In this document: piece after piece, positions 8,901-64,000 of the stretch
Layout: each line of letters begins with the position of its first letter
Position numbering within the stretch: position 1 is the stretch's first letter
Assembly (NCBI GenBank): GCA_051294375.1
Contig: CM119265.1
Span: forward strand, 15,414,963 to 15,478,962
Source of the DNA: Paraspadella gotoi
Lineage: Eukaryota; Animalia; Chaetognatha
Reading direction: 5' to 3'
DNA length: 64,000 bases
Notes under the pieces: model-generated
Database searches by the model: none
Told to the model about the DNA's origin: nothing
Seen by the model: the letters and a program-made list of their open reading frames with translations, nothing else
Made by a program: the position numbers and the translations under genes

Positions 8901-10351
8901 AAATTAAAAAATTTATGGAGGAATCTACTGTAAATTGAATCATCTAAACATTGAATTCCCTGAATTCCCTAGAAGCTTTTGAAGCGCCCATTTTTACATC
9001 ACGCATAGCAGCAATGTCCTTTTCCAAGAAATTTTCGTTTCTACCACCTCTACTAGTTTTTCTAATGTAGTATTTCGGCATTCTTTCTAGTTACAACAAA
9101 TATAAAAAATTATAGATTTGTTGATCCCCATCTTGCCCCAGAAAATTCTCCTTATTTTAATATTTTAATTAACCGTAATAATCGGTCGTTAAATAACGAA
9201 AACCCATTACAAATATGTTATGTACTACATCATAGAAATGCCAAACCAAGACCTTCAAAATTGACTATCATTGAACTCTTTAAATTTTATGGTTGCATAG
9301 ATATGCTGTCACGAAAAAAATCATACTGTACCTATATACTATTGCCTTTATTCCAGGTTCTGCGTCCTATGGCCACTGGATGCAAGGAATGCCTGACAAC
9401 GGTCGCTTGTTCCTAATTCACTGGATCAAAGAAAATTGCCTCATGCAGATGGAGAGCGACCATGGTTGGAACGACGCTGATTGCAACAAAAAACTTCGCT
9501 ATATTTGTCAAAAGGACGCCAATAATCCGTGCGCTGGTTTTCGCTGCGGCAAAGGTCGGTGCGTATTGAACGCCAAGGAAGAGCCATTCTGCGTTTGCCG
9601 TTCAGGCTGGACAGGACCAAGCTGCAAAAAGCCCGTCTCTCGCAACTACTGTCGTCCAAATCCTTGCGTAAACGGCGGCCAATGTTTCGCCAATTCGCAA
9701 GGTTTCCATTGCGTCTGCCAGGGAGAATTTACTGGTCGAAAGTGCGACAAAAAATGCCGTTATGTCGTGACCAAGGAGGGTCTTCCTGAGAATTTGGACT
9801 TTCTCATTCTTCTCGACGGCAGTACCAGCGTTAGTGAGATCAACTTTGACAAGTCGCTGAATTTTTTAACCAAGTTGATTAACAAGCTGGACCTTGGAGA
9901 AAACAAGGCTCGCGTGGGACTTATCCAGTTCAGTCACGAAGTAAAAGAAATAGTGAGTTTCGCCAAATCGGTCAATTTGGGCAAACAAAGTCTGATTCAT
10001 AGAATTGAGGACCTGAAGCAGCTGACGGGTGGGACGGCCACCGGTCGCGCCTTAGAAATTGCCCGTGCTGTCTTGAGGGGCGAAAGTCGAACCTATTCTA
10101 CAGACACGGCCAAGTACCTCCTTGTCCTGACCGATGGCCAGAGTCACCAGGAAAATATTATCCGCGACGTCGTACCCGACATCCGTAAGATGGGTGCAAC
10201 CATTTTTTCGGTTGGGATAGGCCCCGAAGTGGACGAGGCAGAATTGCTGCTCATCGCCGGCGGAGACAAATCGCACGTCTTTTCAGTGGACTCCTTCGAC
10301 AAGCTCAACCACGACTTCCTGCTCAAACTCATCGAAAAGATGTGCGATTGA
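2953..10351 (+). CDS. Secreted C-type lectin - EGF - EGF - von Willebrand A domain protein
   Basis: Exon 2953-3025 is signal peptide-like (MSMAIIFLTALLSLQASAS). Exon 3110-3412 carries CP..RCF..TFSEARRQC..LA..WWIG..WLD. Exon 9357-10351 carries GSASYGHW..MPD..ENC..WNDADC..YICQK, two 6-Cys EGF repeats and a vWA domain with MIDAS DGSTS, TGGTATG and LTDG. Both junctions are phase 1. Confidence 0.88.
4000..5424 (-). mobile_element. Small non-autonomous LTR retrotransposon (Gypsy-like, TRIM/SMART-sized)
   Basis: Near-identical direct repeats of about 311 bp at 4000-4310 and 5113-5424, with AGTGGAG...CTCCACT ends. 4-bp TSD AGGG at 3996-3999 and 5425-5428. On the minus strand the LTR is followed directly by TGATGGCAGCGGTGGG (5112-5097), a 15/16 match to a tRNA-Leu primer-binding site. 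Confidence 0.85.
7295..7412. repeat. Degenerate minisatellite of about 22 bp (TGGTTATCATYGCATCAATATT-like)
   Basis: About five tandem degenerate units are visible in the lectin intron. Confidence 0.6.
8560..8740 (-). mobile_element. tRNA-derived SINE-like element
   Basis: The minus strand reads GCGCCTCAGTGGCTCAGTAG...CCTGGTTCGAGCCCTGAGG (Pol III A and B box-like), followed by a GC-rich body. Confidence 0.5.
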
Positions 10352-11225
10352 TTCTTTCATATTAATATTTAGGTACATGCGTAATTGCATATCGTTTAAT
10401 ACGATAAAATTCATTTTACGTACAAATGAAAATGTTCAAAGGGTGGAACAACTTTCGCTTTGTGGTTTGACGTAGACCGTTTACGTCCGCTTCGTATGCA
10501 ATCATAAAACTTTTGTACGTTATTTTAATGATAATTAAAATAATTGATATACCAATTTGTCAAAAATGAAGTCTAGAAATAGAATAAACGCTTACAAGGA
10601 TTTGCTTTATAAATTAATTATTTGGGTATTGAGCCATATAAAAAATTTTTTGTCCATTGAAAATACATTTAAAAATGTATAAATTTTCGTTTGAGCATGT
10701 ACTCATTCTAAATTTTTGAGTGGGGCTGCCCAAAGTAAGTTAATTTAGATCCTACTATTTTTTACTTATTTATTATTTATACTAAGGTAAGGTAGAAGGA
10801 ATCGGAGCCAAGTGTGAATCTTTTGTTTATTTGTCGGCGTAGTCGGTGCAGAGGAGGCGAGAGGGCCGCTTCAACCTTTTCGTGCATCTCTCCTCTCGAT
10901 CTTAGCTTAACTTGAGGAATGAAAAGACGAGCTTTTTTTTTTGTGATGTTCAGTTTTTTAATCTAAGCCAAGATTTTCCTACACAAAACCATTCGAGACA
11001 AGAGGTGGATGTTCGCGTGTTATAGCTACGTAGCTTGAGTCATACGATTCTCCCTTGGATTTCTCGATGATTGGTTAAACTTAAAGCACCATTGCAGGGT
11101 TTTACTATTTACGCTATTCAATTTTAATCGACGTTTTTTATTTTTCTGCTACGCTCGAACAAGTCACTTCTTTGCCTCTCCCACTTTTAAAGTCCCAACC
11201 CCCTTTCAGCTTTTACCAGTAAAGG

Positions 11226-14200
11226 ATGCCGACTTCGTCCGACCCTTCGAATAGCTCGTCGACAGGTAAACCGCGTTGAACTGTGAACTGTACAGTTGTA
11301 CTATCGAATCGATCCTCCTGTTTCCTGAACCAGAAGGGGCGCCTGCCTGTTCCTCCGATGTTAGCGCTTACGTTTCTAAATCCGAGGATGTTGTGTCGAC
11401 GATCTCTGTCCATTCCTCGCCATTGCGTCGGGAAGATTGTCCCTCCATTTTCTCTTCCCACCCATCGAACGCATCCTCGTCCTCGCCGTCTTCGCCTTAC
11501 GCCACGTCGCAGATTTCCGTCGAGTTAAAGAGAACTACCTCTTCGGTTTCGGAGGCCGCGAGAGCGCAGGTAGAATTAATATATCAAAATCAATCAAATA
11601 TAGAAAATTAGCTAGGGAAATATAATCTCTCTTCAGTTATACTTTTTCGTTCTATGTATATGTACGTTTTACAAACTAGTAGGAATGAGTGTGGTATATC
11701 GTTGATAATTTGAATATTGTGCTGAAGTTACATATGTGGTCTTTTTATAGAGATTAGTAAAATTCTGCCATGTGGTGAATTATATTAATATTGTCGATTT
11801 AAAGATGAATTTACAGGGGTAGAACATATATCCGGACAAAAAAATGACAATGTTTTGAAATCATCCACAACGCCCTGTAGTAGCTTAAAGATTGAATTTG
11901 TTTTATTGCATATGAATGTTATAAGGTAGAAAAATCTTTTGGCACTCATTTCATAATTGTATCTCAAATCGTTAAGACAGTGCAGGACGTTAAGTTTTGT
12001 CCAAATATTTATTTATACGATTTTATTTGATCGTTTTTCAGATTCCGTCTTATCAAGAGGCAGTAGCGCGTCGTTGTGAAGATGGTTATCGGTCCCGACA
12101 ATCTACGGAAGTCTCCGTTTCTCGAAGCGCCTCCCTCCTTGACGCTGCACACGCCCACATCAGCGCATCCTGCAAAGACGCTGGAAAACCACCCGCGGCT
12201 CCGACAGGTTTTTTTCGAAAAATCTCGTTTAAATTTTGAATTTTTTATAAATCGTAATTTTAAAAACTTTTTCCGCTTTTTTATTCAGGATATTCCCCGT
12301 CCAAATACAGCCGTCCGTCTCCCTCCACGCCCCGCGCTATCTTTTATCAAAACGGCAACCGCCTCAGCAGTCAACCTCTTTCCTCGCGCGGATCTGCGGA
12401 TCCTCCAGTTTACCATCGCTGCTCCGCCGAACCGTCGCTGCACAACCGCTCTTCCCGGACTCCGCCTCCACAAGTGCCTCCCCCTCCAATTCCTCACCAC
12501 GGCGTTAACGGGTCAAGTGAAAGCAGCTCTGCACGAAAGGGACAGCCTCCAATGAAATTTCCGCCACCTCCGCCATATCCTCCGCCCCCGTTGAGGTAGT
12601 GGTTTTATTAAAATTAGATCTGAGTCAAATTATGGTACCTTTCGCATTATGATGTGCATTTTATGTGCGTATTAGCGAAAGCGATCGTTTTGTGTCCTCG
12701 TCCCACTCGACAACCCGCCGCCCATCCGATGCAAGCAGTGTCTACAGCGTTACTTCCGTCGGTAGTTTGGGGTCTCGGGCCGGAACGTCAGGTTCGTCGG
12801 CACTTAATCCCAGAGGACCTCCCGTTAATTTGGCTGCGTCTCTCCACAAAGCCGGCTTAATTCGGTGAGAAAATCGAATTCACCAAAGTCCATAATTATT
12901 TATGCTTCTGAATGTTTTATGTCTTATCTTTTCGGTACCTCAGGCCCGTCGCCTACAAACCCGTTATGACGCCAGCGAGTTTGGCCCCAGCACCTGCGCT
13001 GCCTAACGGACGTCCTCCATCCTGCCAATCGGCGCCACCTACAGATTATTTGTCGCCGGACGTCAAAAAAATGGACGAAATGATTCCAAATGCCTTCGTT
13101 CTCTTTAATGATGTGGAATATGAGGTAGTAACATGCATGTAATTAGTAGAGTTGAAATATTTTAAAGTGAACTAATAATATAACATAATTAATACGATTA
13201 ATGATTTTGTCTCAGGGACGCTTACACCGAAGTGCCAGTGAAGACCCTACCCCTAGATGTTCAAGTAGCCAGTCTCATCGGGGTAGCAAAACTAAAAACC
13301 GCAACGCCGACCTCGAAGAGAGGCTTAGGGAAAAGGACAAGGAAATTCAAAATTTAAGGGAAACAATGGAAAAGAACGAGAAAGTCATCATGCAAGTTTA
13401 CAATGAGAAGCAAAATTGGTGGGAGGAAGAAATGAATACCCTCGTTAAAGACCATCGAGTAAGGAGTGTGAATTTTTTAATTCAACTAATTTCTTTGATT
13501 TAAAAATGCTTTTCTATCCACTACCTAGGATAAAATTGGTATACAAAGATCTCGATCTGAAAAAATGGACGTAATGCTTACAAATCAAATTGGAGGCTTG
13601 AAGGTAAGCATTTTTAGAATATTTATTTCGGTTGCTGACTTTTTAAATGCGTTGTACCAATTTTATTAACAATCTCTATTTTTATTTTTTAATTAAGTAC
13701 AAAATAAATACAAGAAATTTTTACCTTCCTCTTTTTTCACTTAATCGTCTTAGGATGACATTAAAAAGTTACGCGACAACAAAGAACAGCTGGGTGACGA
13801 GATCGGCCTCGTAGAAGATAGACTTGCGGATCTGAAGCGTCAGTTGTCCGAAGTGAAAACGTCGGTATCAGAAACCACTTGGGAAGTGAAGCAGAAAAAC
13901 GGAGAAATATCACGCCTCAAAGTTCAATTAAAGGACGAGCTGAATGCCGGCAGGGAAGTTCAAAATCAGGTAAACCCTACCAGACATTTCAAACAACGAC
14001 TATATATGAAAATTTGCAAAATTATTTGTTTCACCATTTTCTATTTTTATGTTTCATAAAGGCTTTAATATTTATTATCTAATTTATTATTTAATATATA
14101 AAAAATTACTAGATTACTTGTTTTACTATATTATACTAAATGTTATTCTGAAATTTTAAATTTAATACATTTATTACTTTTTTAAATTTTTTTAAAACAT

Positions 14201-17200
14201 TTTTGATAATGTGATACGTAAAAGCTACTTATTATAATCTTAATTTTGAATGTTTTTTCTTATATAATTTGTCTTCATATGCTTTCAGTACTTATCATTT
14301 ATAGGTCATGGGACTGAGAGTACAGCTGAAAGACTGCAATCAGGACGTTGAGGATAAGGAAAATCAAATCAATGGAATCAAAGTTATGATGGATTCCACA
14401 GCCAAACGGATTGACATCTTAAAGGTTCGTCTACTATTCCTATATTTTTTTTTTCAAAATAGCTATTTGTGATATTTGAAATTTCCAGACTTTCGAAATT
14501 TCTTTTCCTTTTTCTGTGCGTTTTTTAAAAAAAATATAAGAATTTTTAGTCTGAAATAAAGTGGCGTGATTTTTTTGCACGTGTTGAATGTTGAATGTTG
14601 AATCAGTTCATGAAAATATACCACTTTATTGATAGAGAAACCTGGTACTCCGGAAGTTAATAATTAATACTTTAAGAGAGTTTTGTGTATTGTGTAAGCT
14701 TGCCAGGTCCAGCTATTATTGTTTTGTAGGAGGGATGGAGGCCTTAACCCACCTGAGCCTCGCCAAAGTAGGAGCCGTCCCACTTCTATGCCGCCTCCGG
14801 GAAAAAATACCCTCCGTCTCCCCTCCCCTTGCGAAAAGTCTCTTCAGTGAAATGTTGGCAGAAAGTTCGACAAATTGAGGCATGTCCATTGTTCAAGTGT
14901 TGCTGTTGTGGTTGTTTTCAGGATAAGGGCCCACCAATGAATAAATTAATTTTTATGAATTAATGAACTAAACCGTTCATATTTTAGCTAGACTTCGGAT
15001 TAGGTGGGTTAAACGGTTAAGCGGCAACTGGGCTGGAACCACGAATCTTTTGGTTGGGAGGCGAATAACTTAGTTTTTAAGTCGCCACTTTTTTAATGAA
15101 TTGCTTTTTTCATTCTAATCTTTAAATTTTACCGTTCACAGAACGAATGTCAAGAGTTGGACGAGAAAGAAAAAATGGAAGAACAGAAGGCAAGGAAAGT
15201 TGCCAGTGACACCGTTTCCATTAATGAAGAGATGAGAAAACTGAGAGAAATGTAAGCAACTTTTAGCCTGAAGGATTATTACTTTATTAATAAAATTTTT
15301 TTTATATTTTATAAAAGAATGTCACAAGTCGGTAGACCTGTCTTCGGCTAGTTTTTTTTTTTTTTTCTTTAAAAGTTCCAATTTCTGTTTTAATAAAGGT
15401 TTGACGCGAACGAGAGTATGATGGAGGATCAGAGAAAAGGATGGATTGAAGAGAAAGCTCGTCTCATAATATTTCAAAAGCAACTGCAGCTGAATTACAT
15501 TCAGGTGGTACCGAGTACAATGTTAATGTTAAATTTAATTTTTTTTTTCTCAAAGTGAATGTATTGCTCACTAGATGACACAAAGAACGAATTCTCTGGA
15601 CGCCGAAATGCATCAGCTTATGACCGCTTTACGCACATTAGGCCATGAGGTGAGTAATCTAAATAGCTTCGAATTATATTTGTAGTAAAGTTAATATGTA
15701 TATATATATGACTTTTTTTAAAAATAAAATATGAACTGTCAAAAAAAAAAGTTCATCATACTATAATTTAGCCAATGGCCTTCTTAGAATAGAAAGCGAC
15801 TAGAATTCAGCAGGGGTGTCTTATCTGAGACACTCAGATAAGATACCCCTGCTCAATTCTTGTCGCTTTCTCGTGGCTTTCTTTCGGCCGAAAACCTCGA
15901 TCAGAATCATTTTTAAAGAAAAGATCGGCCGTCTGGAACCGTAGTTTTTACGGATCCAACATTTATTCGATATTTAATTGATTTGCCATGGATTTATCTC
16001 TACGAAAATACAAATAATTCGCAATTTATTCTACATTTTTCGACATTTTCTTTACGCTTCGAGATTTAGTAAGATACTACGAAATCCTTGCTCCTTGTCT
16101 AAACCTGTTCATCCGACGGCCGACGCCTCGAACGCGCGACCCCGCAGGCATAGAAAATATTTAAAAAATTCTAGTTTTGGTCTATATCTTTCCCAACTAT
16201 CTTTGACGCAGTACTATTAAGTTGTTTACATATCTTTGCTTGCTTCTTGTTGTTCTAGCCTGTTGTTTGCTAAGTTTGCTTGCCACGTGCTTTTACACTC
16301 TCATCGGTTTTCTCCTCGACAAAACTTGCTTCGTCATCTTGATCGAGCCCCAAATTTGGATTCGGAAGAGGAAGAGGATCGAAATTTTCCTCCTTCAACC
16401 GGAAGCACTTCCGACTCAATTTGAATTTTGCTCCAACCGATTTGTTCTCTGCGCAAAACCCGACAGGCGGGATATGTGATTACTCTTTCCAAAGAATTTT
16501 TTCTTAAAATCACGCGACAAAAAAGTAAATAAACATTAGGACTTTCAAATTCGCTTCATCGAGTTTAGATCACGAATTTTTCCTTAAAAGTCCGAAAAGT
16601 TTTTCTATCCACGAGGTTAAAGTTGGACCTTGAATCAGCTTGCGTGTCTCCTGTCTACGCGGGAATATCATTTCAATCATGCCATACCATCTTCCTTGAT
16701 TCTTGATCATCGATGTGGACGTTTTGTGATTTAAAAACTGAAAAATTATGAAAAGACTATTTTAGTCGATATGGCAGAGTCTGATTTCGCGATCCCACCG
16801 GAAACTGAAGGTTCTTCCTTCGAACTTAACCTGCTTTTTGACGATGACTCAGGAATTAAAAACTTGTCCGATAATGATCAGTATCTTTACCTGGACAAAA
16901 TCGACACGGGTTGTTTCGCCATCGACGTCGATAAGGAAGCAGAAAAGCAAAATAACTACGTTCACAAACACATTAAAAAGCTGGAAAAGAGACAGCGTCG
17001 TTACTCCGATGAAACTTGCTTTCACCGATTACCCGTCGTGGGTCAGTGCTTGCGCGGATGGCAGATAAGTCGTGAACGCTGTGCTAAAATCAAAACGTTT
17101 AACACTGAAAAGGGTCAAAAGGTGCGCGTTTTCGAATATGAAGGTCAGTGCTTAACTTCGTCCCGTCAATTGCTGCGAAAAGTTTTCGTCGCCAACTTGC

Positions 17201-20200
17201 TCGAGAAAAACGGAGATCGAAGGGTCGCGGTTAAAAGAATCCCTTTCGCTGACAAACTTCATCTTACCTCGTTACTTACTGAAGTTCAAATCCTTCATCG
17301 TCTCTCTGAAAATCCACATCCAAACATCGCGCGGCTCTTGGATTATTTCGTCGATCAAAAACGATGCTTTTTGTACATTGTTATGCCTCTTTACGACTGC
17401 ACCCTAAGTGATGTATTCTTCGCGCGTTTTTTGTCTAAAAAGGAAATGGACAAGCCTATGACAATTGAGGATGATCTCAATCCCACCGGGTTCTCGACCA
17501 ATTTCGACGTTTATCGAAAGTGGAGCGCAAAAAAAGTTATCGAATTAATGAGCGGAAGGGAAATGATCTCCTCATTACTTGAAGCGCTCTCCTATTTACA
17601 TGAAACTTCTCAAGGACAAAAAGTCGTTCACCGCGATACTAAACCATCTAATGTGTTCTTCAAGATTGACCAAGAAAGAAAAACTTGTCGTCTATTGCTA
17701 GGTGATTTTGGTATTGCCAAGGCTATTAATGTTTCTCGGGACGTCACAACTACCGATCCAACTAAAGGAACCCCTCTCTACAGAGATCCTGAGATCGAAG
17801 CGGTAAACAAATTGCGACATACTGTTTCATATGAAACTCTTCTCCGAGGCGATGTTTGGTCGACTGGGGTTTTGATTTTTCAGATCTGGCATAATGGCAT
17901 GCATCCTTTTGCAGAAGATAATACTGAAAATGAAGATGTAACTTTTGCAAACATGGTTCACCACAAACCAGTCGCCCTTATCGGTTCTCATGACGAATTG
18001 AGAAAGAATCTTATTTGGTCAATGATTGTCAGAGAGGGTCGCCTACGACCTACGTTAGACATGGTCAAACAGCATCCCTACTTCAAATCCCCTGCAATAC
18101 TGATGGATTTTCTTCGCCAGTTCACTGAAGTCATGGGAAGTTGTCAGATTGAAGTACCTCTGGAATTAAAGCAAAAGTTTGAAGAGGGACGTCATTTTGT
18201 GTTTGCCGGGAATTCTTCAGACTACGACACCTATGGTCGAAATGAAACTGAACCAAACTTGAATTGGAAGAACAGGTTGTCCCCGAAGGCAAAAAGTTTG
18301 TACTTTGAGATCAATGAACACTCTCTTAAAGAACGTAGAAAGACACGCGAGCTGCTCTCAGATGGATCTCACATTGTGAATACATACAAAGTCGAAAAAA
18401 TGATAGGGTTAGCTCGATTCTTGCGAAACTTTGATCAGCACCACACTCATTACAAATCAATGTGCATCGCTATTTTTGGTCGTCCAGATCCTTCTAAGCA
18501 TGAAATGGTTAAGTTTATCAACTCTGAGTTTCCTTTATTTTTTATTCATACTATTAGCTTTGCCGCTTACCATCTCAAAGAATTCCTTTCTCTCTCTACC
18601 CAACTTCTTAGCATGATAACGTTTGACCTTCGCGTTTTTGCTTCAGCTTATTACAACTACCTCCATGTCTTATCAAAAGACGAAGGTCTTTATGAACGGT
18701 TGAAAACTAAGTTCAATTATCCGAATGAATGGAGATCCGACATGTCTTCAAGCAAAAAAATTAGTTGTGATACTAATAAAATACTGAACGTTACGCAACA
18801 AGAGGAGATAGAAATCAAAGATGAGCAATGGTATTTCGGGCACATCAAACTGGAACAAGCAGAGGAATTACTAATGATGAGAAGAAACCCTAATGGTGCT
18901 TTTCTTGTGCGACGAAGTCAAAAACGTGAAAATCAACTCTCACTTTCAGTCCGGGTTAATGGAGTCGGAGCAAACGATAGCGATATAGTCGTGCATTATG
19001 CATTATACAAAACTATGAAAGGATTTTACATTTACGAAGACTTTTATGCGGATTCTGTGATGTCATTAGTCAATTATTATCAGAAAACTCCGATTTACGA
19101 TAAACAATTACGAAACGTCATATTAAGTCAATCCTGTCTTCAATTTAGTCGAAAAGTTGGAACTGCTCATATTAGTAATGAAGACTAGACGTTTCATTTG
19201 TAATTCTTGTTTTCAATTTTTCTGATTTATTTGCCAAATTAAAATCAATTTTATTTTTTAATATTATGTTGTTTTTTTTCTTTCTATTTAATAGACATAA
19301 ATAATTATGAGTTGGTGACAGAACCGTTCAATATAAGCAGTCCCTGAGCTTCGGATCAGGCTGTAAAACTGTTTTACAGGTGGATTAAGCGCCCTTTCCC
19401 TCTTAATTGCTAGGCGGCCACCGGGCTAGAACCCCGGACCTTTGTGTTGGGAGGCGAATGACTTGCCTCCTGCACCAATGACCGCTAATGAACGGTTGGT
19501 GGTTTTTAGTTCACCATACTATGAGATTTTATCGATAGTTGTCGGTTTCAAAAAATATATTAATAGAATCATTATGTAACTAATGTATAAATTGTACACT
19601 TTTAAATATATTGAAAAGCGGGGTTAACTTAAATTATCTTGATAGGTGGAAATTGATTGGTCTCATGGAGTAAACGGCTCTGATAGGCAAGCTGATTCTA
19701 CCTCACCAACTATAACAAGTATGTATACTTAGAATAGGGGTAGCCGAACTCAGTGGTGTGAATCAAAAATTTAGAGAGTACATGTTCAAACGAAAATTTT
19801 AAGTATACTTTTAATGAACAAAAAATTTCTCATGGCTCTATACCCTAGTAATTATTTTTTTAATATTTATAGGATAGGCCTAAACTTTTTTTTAAATTTT
19901 AAAACCAGATTCAGATAGCTCATAAAAAGTTGTATACACAAAGTATAATTCTTTTTTAAATATTTTTATGATAAGTTAATCAAAAATAATAAAAACCGTA
20001 ATAAATTGTTATCATCTTTCGATAATTTTATCGGTTTTTTTAGATTTTTTACTGAGAAAACCTAAGAATTTTTAAAAGCTGTAATTATAGTAGAAAAAAA
20101 CAAAGTTTTAATGATGTTTACAACGAATTTGTTTTTATTAAAATGGACATGTTTCGGCTTGTGAATTCAAGCTTTCTTCAGGGTTTTTACAATTAATTAC

Positions 20201-27086: not shown

Positions 27087-27886
27087 ATCGGATGGAACAA
27101 TTAGCCTAACGCGCGGCTCATTCCCCTCCTACCATTTTGCTAATTTTGGCGGTTCACTAGAACTAGCAGACGATGCTAAGCCATGTGCTTAAGTCATATT
27201 TAAAATATATTGTTTAATGATTTCCTCTTTTTCTTAGTTTCAAAGAGTTATTTAAAACATCAACGTTGTTATTTGCTTGTTGTCAATAGGTCGTTTGGGA
27301 GAATGAGTTCATTTCCTGAGGCGCAACCTTGCGCAGGAGAAGCGAGGTAGTATACTTCATGGAACGTTTTACAGCGACTAGTTGTAAATAATTTAGTGAA
27401 CGTTTTTCATTTAGTTGTGTAGTTAGTTCCTCGGAATATCCGCCTGTTGCGAATACGAACGAGGCAGGAGACTATATTTGCGAAAGCGGTAAGGATCTTG
27501 GTTTAATGTTTGGAATGTTTTAAAAATTGTCTAGGGTGGTCATTCCGATTTCCTTCGCTTTTTATGATGAAAAGAAAAGAACGCGAATCTTGACGCGTCT
27601 AAAAGAGACAACAGGTGGCTTTAGAATCCACATTATCTGACCGAACCGAACATCTATCCTTGTTATTGGTTAATTTTAAGGGTTTTTTTAGTGACTCAGC
27701 TTTCGTTGAGAAAATAACGGATGATCGTACGTCTGAAATCGGAAATTTAGGAAGCAAATGCGGTACAAAAATGATTACAAGATCTTATGTAGTTCGTGTA
27801 ATTAAATTTTAAACGCCCTCTGAGGCTACCATTTTTCTTTCCATCCTTTTCTATGATATGGAATACAAAAAGATTATCAAGCAAGC

Positions 27887-28681
27887 TTGCTTGATGAAAA
27901 GGAATTAACCCAAGAAAAGTTAATCGGAGCCCTTACAGAATTTCTATCGCCTAGCGGTTACAAAGGCTTCGGCATAAAGGATTTCTTGGTACCTCGAAAG
28001 GATAAAATAAAGAGCCCTAACGGTGCGCCTCCCCCTTCCCCAAAAAACTCTGAATGCGTCAAGACTTCCGACGGAGTCCCTGACGACCATTCTTCGTTGT
28101 TTGCGGCCGTCGGCGACATTTGCCCCCAAATCCCTATTACGACATCAGATTCGAAAGAATCGTTTTCCGCTCCGAGTTTCACCGATTCTGACGAGAATAG
28201 CGGGGATTCCGAAGAAACCGAAACCGAGGATTACGAAGACGCGGACGAGAAGTCTTGGGAGTGGTGCTCGCCCGGGCATTGCTCGAGCGTGTACGAGGAT
28301 GATAATAGGGACAGCACTAGAGCCGAACAGGCCCGTGACTATTTGAAAGGAATTGAGGAAGAGTTTGATCAAATGACAAGATTGATTCCGCCAGAGATTG
28401 CGAACGATGTCAGCGAGGCTCAAACAGAAAAGCCGGTCAAGGAAGGTAATACCTGGCAGAGTCTGCGTACTGGATTAACTGGCGTGAAACAAACGTGGAG
28501 TCAGGCAATGAAGTCACCTCGCTTCAATATTCCTCGCGTTTTTAATAAAAGCGACCAACCTACACGTTTTTCTTCTTTGGTTGATTATCTGGAACCCATG
28601 TGCGATCCCAAGATTCTTTTCAAACATCATCGTGTTCCCCTCATTCCAGAGACGAAACAAAATAGCAGTGGGGAGGAATAG
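27887..28681 (+). CDS. Uncharacterised acidic/Ser-rich protein (probably the last exon; small upstream exons at ~27290-27762 unresolved)
   Basis: 264-codon open frame with coding-like GC content in an AT-rich context. The start is TTG rather than ATG, and candidate splice sites lie upstream. No recognisable domain. Confidence 0.55.
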   Translation: MLDEKELTQEKLIGALTEFLSPSGYKGFGIKDFLVPRKDKIKSPNGAPPPSPKNSECVKTSDGVPDDHSSLFAAVGDICPQIPITTSDSKESFSAPSFTDSDENSGDSEETETEDYEDADEKSWEWCSPGHCSSVYEDDNRDSTRAEQARDYLKGIEEEFDQMTRLIPPEIANDVSEAQTEKPVKEGNTWQSLRTGLTGVKQTWSQAMKSPRFNIPRVFNKSDQPTRFSSLVDYLEPMCDPKILFKHHRVPLIPETKQNSSGEE

Positions 28682-54825: not shown

Positions 54826-57800
54826 TTAAACCGGGTTTATCCCGCCCTGCCTATATACAGCATGATAAGCGTTCCGAAGAAGGACATATGGAAAGCAGGA
54901 CTCGAGTAAATCCATCGTAAGAAAGGGAGATTCTTGAACGATTGTGTCGAGCAAAATGTAAATTGACTCTCGATGACGAACAGCCTCTTTATCGATGGTC
55001 TCGAGTCCTAGTTTAAGAAGAGATGAAGAAGCGAGAGCAAGAAATTCTTTAAGCCTCTCCTCGGTATCTCCGTTGCCGCAAACTGTAAACAAAGCTGCGG
55101 CGAGAGCGTTGATGGCCTTTGCCAAGCAATGGGCGTTATTGGCATGGGCTTCCAGAGAAGGTTTGTACTGAGAATTTTCCATTCTTGCTAAACGTGGGAT
55201 GGAAACTGCGATAAAAACCATTAGTAGGCAAGCAGTCATATATTCGTCTTCGGGGTTTGAATCCTTAGCTTGATTTCTCATCGCGGAACAAAGTGCAGGA
55301 TCTACGTCGCATGAAAGACCCGCCGCAGACGCCATTTCGTTGACGATATCGATGCCTACTTGCGATCGAATGTTGGCGATCGCAGCATCCTGAGTTTTAG
55401 GCATATGCTGCTGGAAATCTTTGATTGAAGTCATTAAAAATGGAATGCGTTTGTCAAGCACGTCTTGCAGCGCTTCTTGTGCCAGAGAGCGAAAGCAGAG
55501 TATAACACCGATAATCGTCGTACGTTGCAGAACGGAATCTACATTCTGTAAATGTCTAATAAGTTCTTTCATCACTTCGGGTTTATCAAAACTTTCTCGA
55601 ATTTCTGTGAGAGTTGTCCTGTTTTGTTCCACCAACTTTTTCAATTCTCCAACTTGGGAGGAAATATGCCACATTAAGTTTTCACTCAAGTACTTCATTC
55701 CGTAAGGTCCAATGAGCTCGGCCAAGGCCCTTAACTCATTGAGATCTGAGAATTCTTCCGCGCTGAAGGGTAACTGACCTTCAGTACTTAAAGATACAAA
55801 AGCCTTGTGGAAGGGGGAAAAGACAATATGTCCGGCGGAGACACGTCGAAGCAAAACTTCTAAGTACCAGTTGGCGTAGAGAAACGTTATAGTCTTCTCC
55901 CCATGAGAATCCAGTGGTTGTGTTTGTTGTAGAAGAACGTTGTTGAAAACTCTAGTTATGTCAATATGAACATAGTTTTCCAAAGATTGAAGAACGTTCA
56001 TGTAAGCTCGAACCGATTGCAACAGCTCCGTCGGTTTACCGATTTCGTTGGTTTCCGGATTGTACATCACCATAGTTACCAATGATTTGGCAAATCTAGA
56101 TTCCAAATGTTGAGAAAGATATTCTCTTGGAGCAAAAGTATGCTCCCAGATGGAAATAGTGGAGCAATAATTAATTGCGTAACAAAGTTCTGTCAGCGCC
56201 ATATGAAGTTTATCCATTTTAGTGAATTCTTCTCGGGTTTTTCTTTTGCTCTCTACGCCTGGTTTTTCCTCCTCAGAAAGCGGCTTCATGTTTCCTCTGC
56301 CGGGTCTATTCTCCCTTCTTCGCTTGTTTACTTGTTGCGCGATCTCTGCGGCGCAGTTTTTGGGGCGCAGTTGGTGGCTAAGGTCGCACTGTTCAACGCA
56401 TATGTTGGTAATAATCTGTTTTGCTTCTTTCGCCATCTCATCTAAGAAGTTATTGACGCAAGAAAGACTCCTGTCTCCGATGTGGTGTCTCTCTTCGGGG
56501 CATAGTTCGTGGGTGCAATTCATGAAATGGGAACAGATTAGTGGAAAGGCTACAGCATATCGGGTTTGAGCCGGAAATTCCAAACACATCTGAAATTGGT
56601 GCTCGAACTGCTTGTAGTAGAAGCAGAAGAAGCTCATGTCCGAAGTTTCGTTGAGCATCTCGTCGAGAAAATCAACCATCTTGGAATGGAAAGCAATCGT
56701 GTTCATGAGATGCGCGAGCTCCTTGTGATCCGTCAGTTGCAGAGGCGATCTTTGCACAGATGTGTAGGCTTGTAATCTGAACCAGTCCAGTCGTAAACCA
56801 CGGAAATCGAAAAGTTCGTTGTCCTCAACTTGCTTGACAGAGAGACCAGTCATTGTGGAATAAAAAGACGATAGAAGAATAGATTCGTCCTCCGGTAAAA
56901 CAGACATATTCTGCGTCAAATGATTTAATCTGGAAGCGTCATATCCACTTAGATATTGTACGTAGTAACGTTGAAGGACTTGGTTGTATTTGCGGACCAA
57001 CGCCCTCAGCTCCTCAACATGAAACAAAAGTTCCGGCAAAAGTCTGTCCTCTAGATCTGGCTTGGGTCGCTTGTCCTTTAAAGAGGCAAGACTATCTTGG
57101 TGCCTCACGAGCCAATGAACCTCGTCTCGCGCGAAAGCCATCCCCATGAATACGTACAAACTTTTCGGGCCTAAAAGTCCGGGTTGATCCGTAAATACCA
57201 GAGCCAATTCTTTTAACGCGGTCCGTAAAAATTTTCGGCGCTCACGATGCAAAAGATGAGCGTGCTGCAACGCGTGATTATAACATTCTTTGATTTCATC
57301 AACCTTTTTTCGGTAGCCCCTTATGCCTTCAAAAAATGACGTGACGAAGGAATGAATCTTTATCACCTCGTCTCTGTAAAGCATTAAAACCCATGACGAC
57401 TGGCAGACCATCTTAAACAGATCCATGGCAACTTGCTGATTGAGATGTTGATGGCATAGAAGAAATCCAAGTATAATCCACCGTTCCATAATATCCAGGG
57501 AGAGATACTCGCAGGGTATGGTGGGCGATTGCGCAGGGTTGAGAAGTGTCGCCGACGTCGTCACGAGGGACAGCAGTTGAGCTTTACGCCATTCTTCTGC
57601 GTGAAGATTACGGCGAGGATAAACGTACTGTAGTGAAAGGAGAGCTTGGACGACAAGTTTGGCGTGAGGAACGAATTCTTCGCACATTCTCTTTAGAGGC
57701 GGATCGTATTCCACGATCATCTGACCCAAACGAGGAAAGGCCGGGTCGCCAGTCCCGTGCATCATTTCGTGGGCATGGTTGAAAAGGCCCAAAACTGCTT

Positions 57801-58263
57801 TTCGGTCGTCGACTTTCGACAATAAAATCATGAGTGACGCGTAGGTTGCCACGAGATCAAGGTAATTCTTGGTAAGGTCGTAGTTAACGGTTATGTCAAA
57901 TTTGCTCTGACAAGCGTCGATGGTAGTCAGCAACTCGACAACATGATCCTTAAAGTCCAGGAGGTCGACGAAAGTGTAATAGTAAAGCGAGAGGGCTTTG
58001 ATCACTTCTCCCTTAATGTTGTTAACTGGGTGAAGTTCCTTTGAATGCGATTTGATTTCCATAATGGGAAATTTTTTAACGATCAGCTTTATCGCACCTT
58101 CGAGCGACTTGTCGCTAAGAAAGCTAGGTTTCGATTTAGCGTCGCCACAGGCTTTCTTAATGTTGTAGACCCTCGTTAGCATTCCGATCCCCCGATCGTT
58201 GAGAATTGTCAGCCGCTCGGACAGCTTTTGCTGACTTGGGTTCAAAGCACGTGCCATCGACAT
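54826..58263 (-). CDS. NCKAP1: Nck-associated protein 1 (Nap1/Hem/Kette; WAVE regulatory complex), single coding exon
   Basis: Uninterrupted ORF of about 1145 aa: [29 protein letters not shown].., [25 protein letters not shown], ..[27 protein letters not shown]. The likely start is ATG 58263 or 58257. Confidence 0.97.
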
Positions 58264-59660: not shown

Positions 59661-62600
59661 ATGGATTCTAAATTTTTACTGGCTGAAGTCCAAGCTTGTT
59701 GCAGTTCTCTTGGATATCAAGACAATGGAGTTTATCACAGGGGAGAAGATCATCTTAATGCTATCAAGGTTTGGTGTGACGCAATTTTACTTTGCTACTT
59801 TTATTGCAACAGTCAAACTGAGCACCTGGGCTATTGCTAAGGGTTGTACAAAAGTTTTATCTTAATTTATTCGTTGCAGGATTTGATTCGCTACCTTCGG
59901 CGTGACGGAGAGATTTGCCAAATTCGTCGCGTTCTCGGCGAAGCGCGCGTGTTGCAAAACGATTTAGTCCCGATGCTGAAAAACTACAAGGACGATGCTA
60001 CCCTTTTCGACCTGATCGTTAGGCTCTTAGTCAATCTCACTCAGGTTCGATACCTTATAAATTTGGGCTGATCCGAATTGAAAAATTTTGTATCGTCGTT
60101 TTGCCCCTGAAGCCAGCGGAGTTGTGCTTTAACAACAAACCGCCAGAAGATAAAGAACTGCGCGTGTTCTACCTTCAAATAACGACTCATCTGCAGTCTT
60201 ACAAACAATTTTTCGCCCACGAGTCCTCCTTCTTCAACGTTATCACCAAGAAGCTCGTCGACTCCTTTAGTCGCGGATGGGAGGATCGCGAAGAGGAGGA
60301 TCGGCTACTCGTGGAGAGACTCCTCGTACTGATTAGAAACGTCGTCTCCATCCCTTCCGATCCCGAAGCAGAAAAGCGGACGGAAAATGACGTCAGCGTG
60401 CACGATTTGTTGTATTGGGCTATGCAGGTGACGTCTTGAGAAAGATTGTATTGGGCTATGCAGGTGACGTCTTGAGAAAGATTCACATTTAGTACGCCAT
60501 ACGAATTTCGAATCTTGCTTTCTCATTTTTCGAATCGCAGTCGTCTGGCCTCGAAAGCGTTTTTCTCTACATCTCCAGCACTTCAACCGAAGCTCAGTTC
60601 TGCCTCCACACCTTAGAAATAATAAACCAAGTATTGCGGGAACAGTCGCCTGCTCAATTAGCTTCCGCTGGTCAGCTTAGGACCGAAAAAGAGTTGGAGG
60701 AGGAAAGGTGAGAAGAAAATTAATGCTTATTATCACGTAGTTAACTTATTGTGAAAAACGGTTTTTCTTTACGCTTCAGCCAGGAACTCGAGGCCATTCG
60801 CCTTCGCGAGGCGGCCGTCAAACGCGCAAACGCGATGAAATATTCGGGTCGTCACTCTCGTTTCGGCGGCACCTTTACGATCGCCAACCTCAAGGGGATC
60901 GCTGACGCCGACGCCATCGTTCACAAATCCCTTAGCAAAATCCAAGGTAACGAATATTGACGGTAGAAAGGATTTCTTCACATGTTGTGACGTTCTCCCT
61001 TCTTTCTTTGCTACTAGGAAATCTGTGCTTCGACGAAGAGAAAAAACGACGCCGACGACCGAAGAATAAACTTCCGGTAGCTGATCGGGACGCCACCAGA
61101 AAATCTACGCAGGCAATTCGCGTTCTTCACCGCGACTTCTGCTCCAAGTTCCTCGATCACTGCTATAATCCCATGATGCGAACAGTGAGGTTGGAACGAC
61201 GAAAGATTTTAATTGCGTCGCGAGTACTCGCGGAGCAACTCTATAAGTCACTTTTCGGTCGGTCTGTCGGTCGGTATGTCTGTCCGTCGGTCTGTCCCAC
61301 TTACGTTAGAAATGCATATAGTTGGTTGCTCATTTGTTAAGACAGAAAAAACCTCAAATCTTAGGGACTGCTAGCGCTGCCTTCAGGAATTCCTAAAACT
61401 ATAAAGAATAAAAGATGGAATTTTGATTCCGTGCATGTCATAAATACATAGGCAAAACAATTTTTTAGTCATGTCATATCATCGAAAGGAAATACAGGTG
61501 AAAATAAAGTCACTGCGGCACAACATATTGGAATTACCGTTTTTGTTGCTTATTTATCAAATCGACATTATTGTATCGCTTTTGTCATCTCTTTCTGTTT
61601 TCGTTCCAGGGACGCCATACGTCACAAGAAGGGCGAGGAGAATGACGAGTCTTTTTACTTGTGGACGATGCGATTTTTCATGGAATTCAATCGTCTCTAC
61701 AATTTTGATGTGGGTCTTGTCTCGGAGACGCTGTCCATGCAAACTTTTCACCTCATTCAAGTGCATTTAACCGACTGCTACGAACGAATGATCACCGAAA
61801 AGCGGCAGGTTCAGGAGTCATTAGCATGGGGTCGGAGATTGCATCTTGCTTTAAAAGCCTATCAGGAATTGCTGCTCACAGTACACACCATGGGCAAATC
61901 CAAAGATCCTGTTTTGGTTAATAATAGGTGAGACGGCATATTTTACAGAAAACTTTATCAGTTAAAAGCAACTTTAAAGAATTAACGATCCTTCCTCTAT
62001 CCGTTTCGCAGCACGATTCTCAAAAACAACCTCTTTTACGTAATGGAATATCGCGATCTATTCGTCATGCTACTCAAAAAGTTCGATGATTCGCGCCTAT
62101 CCAAGTCGTTCCTTCGCGATCTCTTTGAAACAGCCCATGCCTTTGTAAAAATGTTAGAAGAACACTGTAAAGGCAACACACACACGATGGTACAAAAGAC
62201 TCAAGTCGTCGGGAGGAAAAAGAAACCCACGCCGAAAAGCGTTCATAGGTATGGTTAATTGGCATAACATGTTCTGTTAGAAGCATTCTTTGCTACTACC
62301 TTGATATTTAACTTTAATAGCACTTTGACCGAAGAGGAACTGGAACTGAAATGGTCCTCTATGCAATCGGAAATCGGCGAAGTTTTGAGCGGAACTCGGC
62401 CAATGGCAGACGACATTATTCCGTTCGACGCTGCTTCATCCGTCAGTGTAGAAGATCAAAAGACTCAAGTAAGCGAAGATGGAAAGAATAATCTTTACCT
62501 ATAACCTGAAACCTGCTTTCTAACCTTCATAGGCTATGAACCGAATTCAAGCGGCGCTCCGCGACAGACAGGTGGGCGAGGCGGTAGCGTTGTTTCGCGC

Positions 62601-64000
62601 TGCCCGCGGTGTTTGGCCAGAGGGTGACGCCTTTGGCTGCGTGGGATTAACGCCGGAAGAGGAGCTCCAGTCGCTGAAGCAGATTATGTTGGCCGACTTG
62701 TCTGACTTCGAAGACCAGACGTGTGATCAGCAGGAGGATGACGAAGACGAAGAAGAAGAAATCGCCCAGATGGTTCCTGTTGAGATCGAATTTAAATTCG
62801 AAGAATATCTCACGAAATTCGCCCGAGGAGAAGTAGTTAAGAATTGCTGCTTAGTTCTTAAGGACTACGCAACCAATTCGGCGTCCGTCAATCATGCTGT
62901 CGTCAAGTTGCTTCATCGTTTAAGTGTCGACATGAAACTTGCCGGGTTGCTTTATCATGTCAGCGCCTTAAAGATTTTTAAAACTATTCTTCACGATCCT
63001 GGAGCCCGGTCAAAACATTTACGAGAACTCTCTACGTTCTCCAAATTCCTAGTGCAAAAATTTTTTCAAGATTTGGAGAGGAATCCGTTGCTAGTGGTGG
63101 AAACGCTTTTTTGGAAGGATCTCAAGGAGGCCGTTGATGTCACCGAAGGCTACGGCTCTTATAGGGAGAGATCGAAGACGAAGAAGACCCTATGGACTGA
63201 AGAACAAGAAAACGAAATCCGCCTCTTATGGGAAGAGCACCGCAACAAGCTCGAGGAAGGGGCGGATGTTGCCGACCTCGTTCTCGAAAGTCTCAGCAAT
63301 CCCGGGGAAAAGACTCGCACCCAACTTGTTCGGCAAATGGTGCGAATGGGACTCTTGGGTTCCGCGAAAGACCTGAAGACGCGCGCGAAACCACGAAAAG
63401 CAAAAACGCCCAAACACGTGTGGCCAGAAACACTGAGCGAGGAATTAAAGATGTTGTACGAAAAGCATCGGGAAAACGAAGAGAATGATGAGTCGGGACT
63501 GGATGTCATAGACAAGATAATGCGAGATCTCACCGATGCCTCCCGGTCTCGCAAGGAGATTTTAATGCAACTGGCGGCAATGGACTTAATACAGGATCCA
63601 AATGCGTACCGTAAAAAGGGCGTCCGTCATATCGCATATTGGCGCCCTGAGCAAATCGATGAACTTCGCGAGTTGTGGGCTCGCTATGAGAATGCCATGA
63701 ATCCCTTAGATCGAATCAAAGAAGCTCTCGTCGCCAAAAGAAGTAAAAATATGCTTGCTTCCAAGTTATTAGAGCTGGGACTTATCGCCGACAAGAAGGC
63801 GCTTATGAATAAGGGGAAGGAAGAAAAGAAGAGGAAGAAAACTGATCCGTGGGAAAACGCCACGGATGAAGAGGACGTCGTAACCCCGCCAACCACGGAC
63901 GACGAAACCGTCCAAACTACCACCGTTGAACGGAAGAAGGTCAGTATGACAAGCCGGCAGCGAGATAGCGCTCGCGAAAAGCGTCGGTATGCCGTGTCCG
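59661..64000 (+). CDS. TIMELESS: TIMELESS / timeout (TIM2) replication fork protection protein, 3' end beyond window
   Basis: LAEVQACCSSLGY..K|DLIRYLRRD..RRVLGEARVLQNDL.., VRLLVNLTQP, RHSRFGGTF, YNPMMRTVR, WGRRLHLALKAYQELL, PFDAAS and LVVETLFWK. Multi-exon, with a long open last exon from ~62533. Confidence 0.93.

Follow-up and report, generated by a model that had tools for sequence, protein, structure and literature searches.

In a 64,000-nucleotide stretch of the genome of the chaetognath Paraspadella gotoi (GenBank assembly GCA_051294375.1, contig CM119265.1, positions 15,414,963 to 15,478,962 of the forward strand; hereafter the window), we identified an intact gene whose product is a soluble kinase-KEN protein of the IRE1 type with an SH2 domain at its C-terminal end. 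Two kinase-KEN ribonucleases (RNases) of animals have been characterised, IRE1 and RNase L, and each is activated through an N-terminal sensor of its own. The protein described here, P0001, would work like these two enzymes yet is neither of them. We propose, with a probability of roughly one half, that it is a latent RNase which is concentrated through its SH2 domain on phosphotyrosine (pTyr)-bearing receptors or scaffolds, where dimers form and nearby RNA is cleaved.

Gene structure and domain layout

P0001 is encoded by a single forward-strand frame of 805 amino acids (aa), which starts with the ATG at 16771 and ends with the stop codon at 19186-19188. The corresponding stop-to-stop frame opens at 16735 and contains no Met before 16771. 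In DNA contigs of other samples the frame is free of gaps and shows one synonymous change. Single contigs of these samples cross the domain junctions, and a mis-assembled kinase-KEN-SH2 fusion was therefore rejected. A bacterial or viral origin of the locus was rejected as well, since the neighbours are spliced animal genes (Nckap1, Timeless, Fez1, vWA). No further copy of P0001 was found within the 64-kb window.

An earlier inspection of the letters alone (the sequence-only reading) had described one 805-aa open reading frame (ORF) with a kinase keeping VAVK, the alphaC Glu, HRD and DFG. All of these motifs were found again, with VAVK at 152-155, the alphaC Glu at E171, HRD at 287-289 and DFG at 312-314. 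Further motifs are HPYF at 435, NW at 498, Y539-x12-R552-N553-x3-H557, FP at 587 and FLVRR at 711 (R714). Pfam assigns the kinase (Pkinase, 103 bits) and the SH2 domain (59.4 bits, aa 687-770). In agreement with the same reading, neither a signal peptide nor a transmembrane segment was detected, the maximum 19-residue hydropathy of 1.42 being located in the kinase, and there is no Pfam match to ankyrin repeats. A lumenal sensor domain likewise gave no Pfam match in P0001, whereas full-length IRE1-like proteins do give one.

The kinase and KEN domains

The kinase has IRE1 as its top matches in the PDB, with the alignment extending into the first KEN helices, and the best PDB matches of the family kinase profile are all IRE1 (E 1.9e-26). 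The catalytic Lys, the alphaC Glu, HRD and DFG are retained, and the Gly-rich loop, which had been described as degenerate, indeed contains no Gly at all. Because of this degenerate loop, the kinase may act mainly as a nucleotide-sensitive scaffold for the dimer.

Profile, fold and motif comparisons support the assignment of aa 439-606 as a genuine KEN domain in which the catalytic residues are intact. A KEN profile built from 8 proteins outside the family aligns to aa 446-601 (profile positions 7-121 of 126) and scores the excised region with 34.0 bits, compared with 9.9 for the best shuffled sequence (1000 shuffles, 946 scored) and 0.6 for the reversed one. When the 3 family members with an intact RNase motif were compared with 15 IRE1-like proteins in HHalign, the probability was 96.2% (E 2.5e-9, 125 columns). 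The AlphaFold model, based on a 59-row alignment, has a mean pLDDT (predicted local distance difference test) of 78.9, with 90+ near the active-site helices, and shows an all-helical KEN fold packed on the C-lobe of the kinase. All 30 Foldseek matches listed for this model are IRE1 (TM-scores of 0.69-0.79 by target length, kinase-RNase chains of 370-420 residues). The relative P0005 passes the Pfam cut-off for KEN with 26.3 bits, and the ESM Atlas gave a sub-threshold lead from P0001 to Ribonuc_2-5A (0.75). The sequence-only reading had made its case depend on a KEN hidden Markov model hit or structural match at aa ~440-600, and the profile, HHalign and Foldseek each place one there.

According to the text of a KEN survey (PMC3710099), the hallmark of HEPN/KEN RNases is Rx4-6H with a polar residue after the Arg. 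This motif is present in P0001 (R552, N553, H557) together with the catalytic Tyr (Y539). For yeast Ire1, the text of PMC3149027 describes Y1043, R1056, N1057 and H1061 as catalytic. These residues correspond to Y539, R552, N553 and H557 of P0001, so that the Y-x12-R-N-x3-H spacing, pointed out earlier as that of IRE1, is in register. Upstream of the catalytic Tyr the domain is longer by ~40 residues, among them a basic helix at 505-525, and Phe554 occupies the position where human IRE1 in the alignment has Lys after RN. RNase L likewise has a residue other than Lys at this position. Y..RNFxQH and the basic insert are conserved in 3/3 RNase-intact members, with KEN identities to P0001 of only 53% and 34%. 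The retention of the motif despite this divergence points to selection on catalysis. Judged from the sequence, P0001 is likely to be an endoribonuclease that is active but latent, and by analogy with IRE1 and RNase L its cleavage would be metal-independent and require a dimer or oligomer.

Some results weigh against this assignment. In the Pfam check which the sequence-only reading had proposed, the kinase and SH2 domains were recovered with the scores given above, but Ribonuc_2-5A (PF06479) reached only 19.3 bits (E 1.3e-3, aa 536-602), under the curated cut-off of 23.3. With the KEN region alone, phmmer did not retrieve IRE1 from the PDB, and a profile of three family sequences aligned the motifs of IRE1 in register but gave no better than E 0.4. 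The good model is not independent, as its alignment includes IRE1-like rows, and an AlphaFold model from a 2-row alignment had a pLDDT of only 29.8 and was discarded.

Relatives of P0001

For the identification of relatives, 1.84 billion representatives were fully scanned, which revealed 3 matches with E <1e-30 and 153 with E <1e-10 (150 listed). A search with aa 400-805 identified 1 relative among 4390 candidates. A profile search at E 1e-20 found none among 7995 candidates and is uninformative, since the candidate list was probably filled by kinases. Besides P0001, the family consists of 9 sequences in 8 clusters (P0002, P0003, P0004, P0005, P0006, P0009, P0011, P0013 and P0033), all of them unnamed, found only in the European Nucleotide Archive (ENA) and located on contigs of 610-3305 bases. 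The KEN profile was positive for 50 of the 159 scanned proteins, and a credible SH2 domain was additionally present only in P0001 and P0011, the latter with KEN joined to SH2. Weak SH2-profile matches on P0012, P0019 and P0025 were rejected, as Pfam shows no SH2 in them. P0007 was dismissed as a repetitive plant-like kinase artefact, and L001, the one locus obtained from 245 pattern matches in a Joint Genome Institute (JGI) metagenome scan, was dropped as an unrelated bacterial Ser/Thr kinase.

P0002, P0003 and P0004 are full-length, with the same layout as P0001 and a canonical SH2 domain. However, all three (2 clusters) have lost the kinase motifs HRD and DFG as well as the basic insert and the RNase motif, which speaks against the proposed function and means that the kinase-KEN-SH2 layout can persist without either enzyme. 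P0001 might accordingly function in signalling, as a kinase or an adaptor, and its KEN domain might be a structural or RNA-binding remnant heading to the dead state of P0002-P0004. The strong divergence of the KEN domain, with its extra residues and the replacement of the IRE1 Lys by Phe554, would fit such a history. Yet the four catalytic residues are retained in three divergent members, the fragments P0005 and P0011 keeping Y..RNFxQH, and the missing Lys is shared with RNase L. We consider the remnant explanation quite unlikely.

Outside the known domains, two segments are conserved in the family. In the N-terminal module (N-module), 41-45 of 85 residues are identical in P0002, P0004 and P0009, which begin at the same motif as P0001. 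This module gave no Pfam match below E 0.06 and no Atlas match >0.80, and aa 11-51 have a pLDDT <50. The helical extension after KEN is identical at 26-28 of 46 residues in P0004 and P0002 and weak in P0011; its helices have a pLDDT of 68-87 and no Pfam match. Across the family, the post-KEN helices (~60% identity) and the N-module (~50%) are better conserved than the SH2 domain (41%) or the kinase (37%). The N-module also occupies the place of the IRE1 and RNase L sensors and could itself be the dimeriser, a point against clustering by SH2. In that case an active RNase would be switched by the N-module or by an intramolecular clamp, and the SH2 domain would merely localise the protein or hold it shut, an explanation which also bears on the SH2 pocket discussed below.

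The position of the family was analysed in two quick trees with 52 and 42 rows, from which 7 and 11 rows, respectively, were omitted because of length, redundancy or long branches. The four family rows group together in both trees (support 95-97), separately from IRE1. In the second tree the family adjoins another soluble kinase-KEN family, outside the IRE1-like group (96 in the Shimodaira-Hasegawa-like approximate likelihood-ratio test, SH-aLRT), but a single clade of the family with IRE1 was not rejected by the approximately unbiased (AU) test (p-AU 0.17). In the adjoining family, sister to that of P0001 in this one tree, DFG is replaced by DFD and there is an RN..H motif (P0008, P0028, P0038, P0059, P0060, P0108, P0142 and P0148).

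The SH2 domain and its pocket

The best SH2 match of P0001 in the PDB is the SH2 pair of SHP2, followed by Src and Fgr. The sequence-only reading had called the domain a Src-type SH2 with the FLVR Arg. The SH2 domain and R714 are present, whereas SHP2 is closest and the Arg at alphaA2 of the Src class is absent. According to the text of PMC7530234, a basic residue at alphaA2 characterises the Src-like SH2 class and one at betaD6 the SAP-like class. P0001 has a basic residue at neither position, which argues against pTyr-driven recruitment, and by this rule it fits neither class. In the alignment with SHP2, the C-SH2 domain of the latter, which binds pTyr, has Gly and Met at alphaA2 and betaD6. 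Because it also lacks both, the missing auxiliary basic residues are not fatal to pTyr binding. A further difficulty for the proposed recruitment is that P0011 has an intact RNase motif and yet Leu at betaB5 instead of the FLVR Arg; pTyr binding is thus not required in every RNase-type member. The binding of pTyr by P0001 is plausible, but less certain than was first implied.

The eroded pocket of P0001 and the absent Arg of P0011 would also be in line with the N-module or clamp switch described above. On the other hand, P0001 retains R714, S716 and H742, the SH2 fragment P0033, which is nearest to the SH2 domain of P0001 (43/101 identical), has a canonical pocket, and aa 11-51 of the N-module are without a confident fold. 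A switch of this kind is possible but appears somewhat unlikely.

Host intron and transcription

P0001 is an intronless gene which lies entirely within an intron of ~4 kb; the intron belongs to a Fez1/LZTS-like gene on the same strand. The intron is defined by a 5097-nt contig of run X7, which departs at ~15650 and resumes with letters at 19649 (from 19646). X7 is spliced RNA, as this contig also skips the GT..AG introns 15252-15398 and ~15505-15574. Pfam detects Fez1 on the host exon 15400-15504 (E 7e-8). The position of an intronless gene in a host intron would fit retroposition. The host itself is a multi-exon coiled-coil gene on the forward strand, which covers ~11225-19720 of the window and extends beyond. 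Short, very high-copy repeats resembling short interspersed elements (SINEs) are located at ~19340-19490, ~14700-14800 and ~14990-15090, one of them ~150 bases past the ORF stop.

X7 contigs cover 2258 of the 2418 ORF bases with a depth of 3-7. One unspliced contig spans 17764-19328, from the kinase through SH2, and a second one (16573-16855) crosses the ATG at 16771. Contigs of run X8 are identical to those of X7, and both runs were counted as one sample. Runs X10 and X11, which come from other organisms, show no cover, a result without bearing on expression of P0001. Host intron bases are without X7 cover in 4/5 neighbouring bins, one of which (15653-15759) belongs to the intron that contains P0001; this is a modest sign of a separate P0001 transcript. 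The RNA data also contain points to the contrary. The depth of 3-7x is low compared with 225x for the host mRNA (2-3%), both this cover and the DNA contig break off close to the same repeat edges, and a short X7 piece (depth 7) lies in another host intron (14555-14709), so the cover may be host pre-mRNA. The ORF would then not be an independent gene: it could serve the host as an alternative last exon, or be a silent retrocopy visible only as intron RNA, for which its location on the same strand within the host intron would be expected as well. This is very unlikely in our view: several samples carry the 805-codon frame in intact form, P0002, P0004 and P0009 share its start motif, and most of the ORF is covered, with an unspliced contig over the ATG, where most intron bins are bare.

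Proposed mechanism

In the mechanism which we prefer, the SH2 domain would recruit P0001 to tyrosine-phosphorylated receptors or scaffolds. Crowding at these pTyr platforms would lead to the back-to-back dimer and thereby switch on the RNase, and the N-module is predicted to assist the dimer. The output would more likely be local RNA decay, similar to regulated IRE1-dependent decay (RIDD) or to RNase L, than XBP1-type splicing, because P0001 is not located at the endoplasmic reticulum (ER) and has a remodelled loop ahead of the catalytic Tyr. The enzyme-dead relatives would serve as adaptors or tuning partners. Such a role is suggested by Ire1, which, according to the text of PMC3149027, requires a composite dimer site and in which a catalytically dead partner boosts the wild type ~tenfold in trans. 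The fuller version, in which pTyr clustering via SH2 triggers RNA decay directly and dead paralogs with canonical pockets act as pTyr-docking partners that assemble with the active enzyme and modulate it, is more tentative and should be taken as possible rather than probable.

Features of the window

The coordinates of P0001, its parts and the enclosing intron are summarised in Table 1.

Table 1. Features of the P0001 locus (window coordinates)
Feature	Position	Strand	Evidence
P0001, intronless ORF, 805 aa: N-module, kinase, KEN, helical extension, SH2	16771..19188	+	Translation, Pfam, gap-free contigs of other samples
N-terminal module, aa 18-105, predicted long helix 53-77; candidate dimerisation or partner-binding element	16822..17085	+	Conservation in relatives
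IRE1-type Ser/Thr kinase, aa ~106-438; K155, E171, HRD, DFG present	17086..18084	+	Pfam, PDB matches, family profile
KEN (HEPN-type) RNase domain, aa 439-606	18085..18588	+	KEN profile, HHalign, model, Foldseek
Predicted RNase active site, Y539, R552, N553, H557	18385..18441	+	Alignment to human IRE1
Helical extension after KEN, aa 607-652	18589..18726	+	Conservation in relatives, model
SH2 domain, aa 684-785; R714 (betaB5), S716, H742 retained; alphaA2 = L694, betaD6 = A744	18820..19125	+	Pfam (PF00017), alignments
Unique sequence upstream of ATG, low-depth RNA contigs; likely 5' untranslated region or promoter region	16130..16770	+	RNA contigs
GT..AG intron of the Fez1/LZTS-like host gene, enclosing the whole ORF	15650..19645	+	Spliced 5097-nt X7 contig

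Several other genes were observed in the window. Nckap1/Hem (54826-58260, reverse strand) has one open frame of >1140 codons and is the second intronless gene of the window. A Timeless-family gene with multiple exons is located at 60023-64000 (forward strand). One forward frame at 9284-10351 encodes the end of a C-type lectin, two EGF repeats and a vWA domain; an X7 contig of 2065 nt covers it with 9 differences and possibly belongs to a paralog. At 27857-28681 (forward strand) there is an acidic, Ser-rich open frame of 274 aa with no credible Pfam match.

Comparison with known kinase-KEN and SH2 proteins

P0001 shares with IRE1 (yeast Ire1p; human IRE1alpha/ERN1; PDB 2rio, 3fbv, 6w3c, 4pl3) the type of kinase, the HPxF junction between kinase and KEN, the KEN fold and the spacing of the catalytic Tyr, Arg, Asn and His. 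It differs from IRE1 in having no lumenal sensor, no transmembrane segment and no Gly in the Gly-rich loop, and in the possession of the ~40-residue KEN insert, the N-module, the post-KEN helices and the SH2 domain.

RNase L is a pseudokinase of jawed vertebrates. Like P0001, it is a cytosolic kinase-KEN protein with an added domain of the sensor type. In contrast to RNase L, P0001 has no ankyrin repeats, its HRD and DFG are intact, and its added domain, of a pTyr-binding type, is located at the C-terminal end. RNase L is absent among the listed PDB and Foldseek matches of P0001 and of the family profile. The distribution differs too: a quick tree with 38 rows, which lacks molluscs and several small phyla, places Nckap1 of the window outside the sampled deuterostomes, arthropods, and annelid plus brachiopod. 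Among the 120 listed of 1200 matches to this Nckap1, no named protein exceeds 69% identity. RNase L itself originated by the addition of ankyrin repeats to a PK-RNase protein, as stated in the text of PMC10400998.

KEN has repeatedly been joined to new partners. The text of PMC3710099 lists fusions with kinase, ankyrin, CCCH, UBI and BRCT domains and expansions of solo KEN in Oikopleura and monocots. Among our own matches (P0014, P0017, P0026, P0045, P0073) we observed kinase-FN3-kinase-KEN in Styela clava (XP_077973364.1) as well as TPR-kinase-KEN-kinase, tandem kinase-KEN, ankyrin with two kinase-KEN units and dsRBD-kinase-KEN. P0001 shares this history of shuffling, which tempers the surprise of its fusion, but none of the other proteins carries SH2. 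With SH2 enzymes (SHP2/PTPN11, Src family) P0001 has the SH2 fold and the FLVR Arg in common, whereas its output would be RNA cleavage, its kinase is not a tyrosine kinase and its single SH2 domain is C-terminal to the enzymes.

The sequence-only reading knew of no kinase-KEN-SH2 protein among characterised animal proteins, and the literature search, with most subscription journals outside its scope, likewise found no report on KEN or Ribonuc_2-5A with SH2. SH2 does not occur in the text of the KEN survey (PMC3710099) or in that of PMC10400998 on RNase homologs in ten clades, whose figures or supplement may list the architecture. The text of the chaetognath genome paper (PMC12460157) contains no occurrence of IRE1, RNase L or SH2. 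Standard annotation would miss P0001, because its KEN domain is under the Pfam cut-off and the gene is hidden in a host intron.

If the proposed mechanism is true, P0001 would represent a third way of switching on a kinase-KEN RNase, a direct switch from pTyr to RNase of which the literature search yielded no example. A soluble KEN protein wired through SH2 would allow tyrosine signalling from receptors to trigger RNA destruction with no transcriptional step in between, and P0001 would be a candidate RNase L-like effector for a non-vertebrate animal. Its modular design would further allow one to ask, in a natural protein, whether clustering is sufficient to activate KEN, and the active and dead members of the family would form a testable pair of enzyme and pseudoenzyme.

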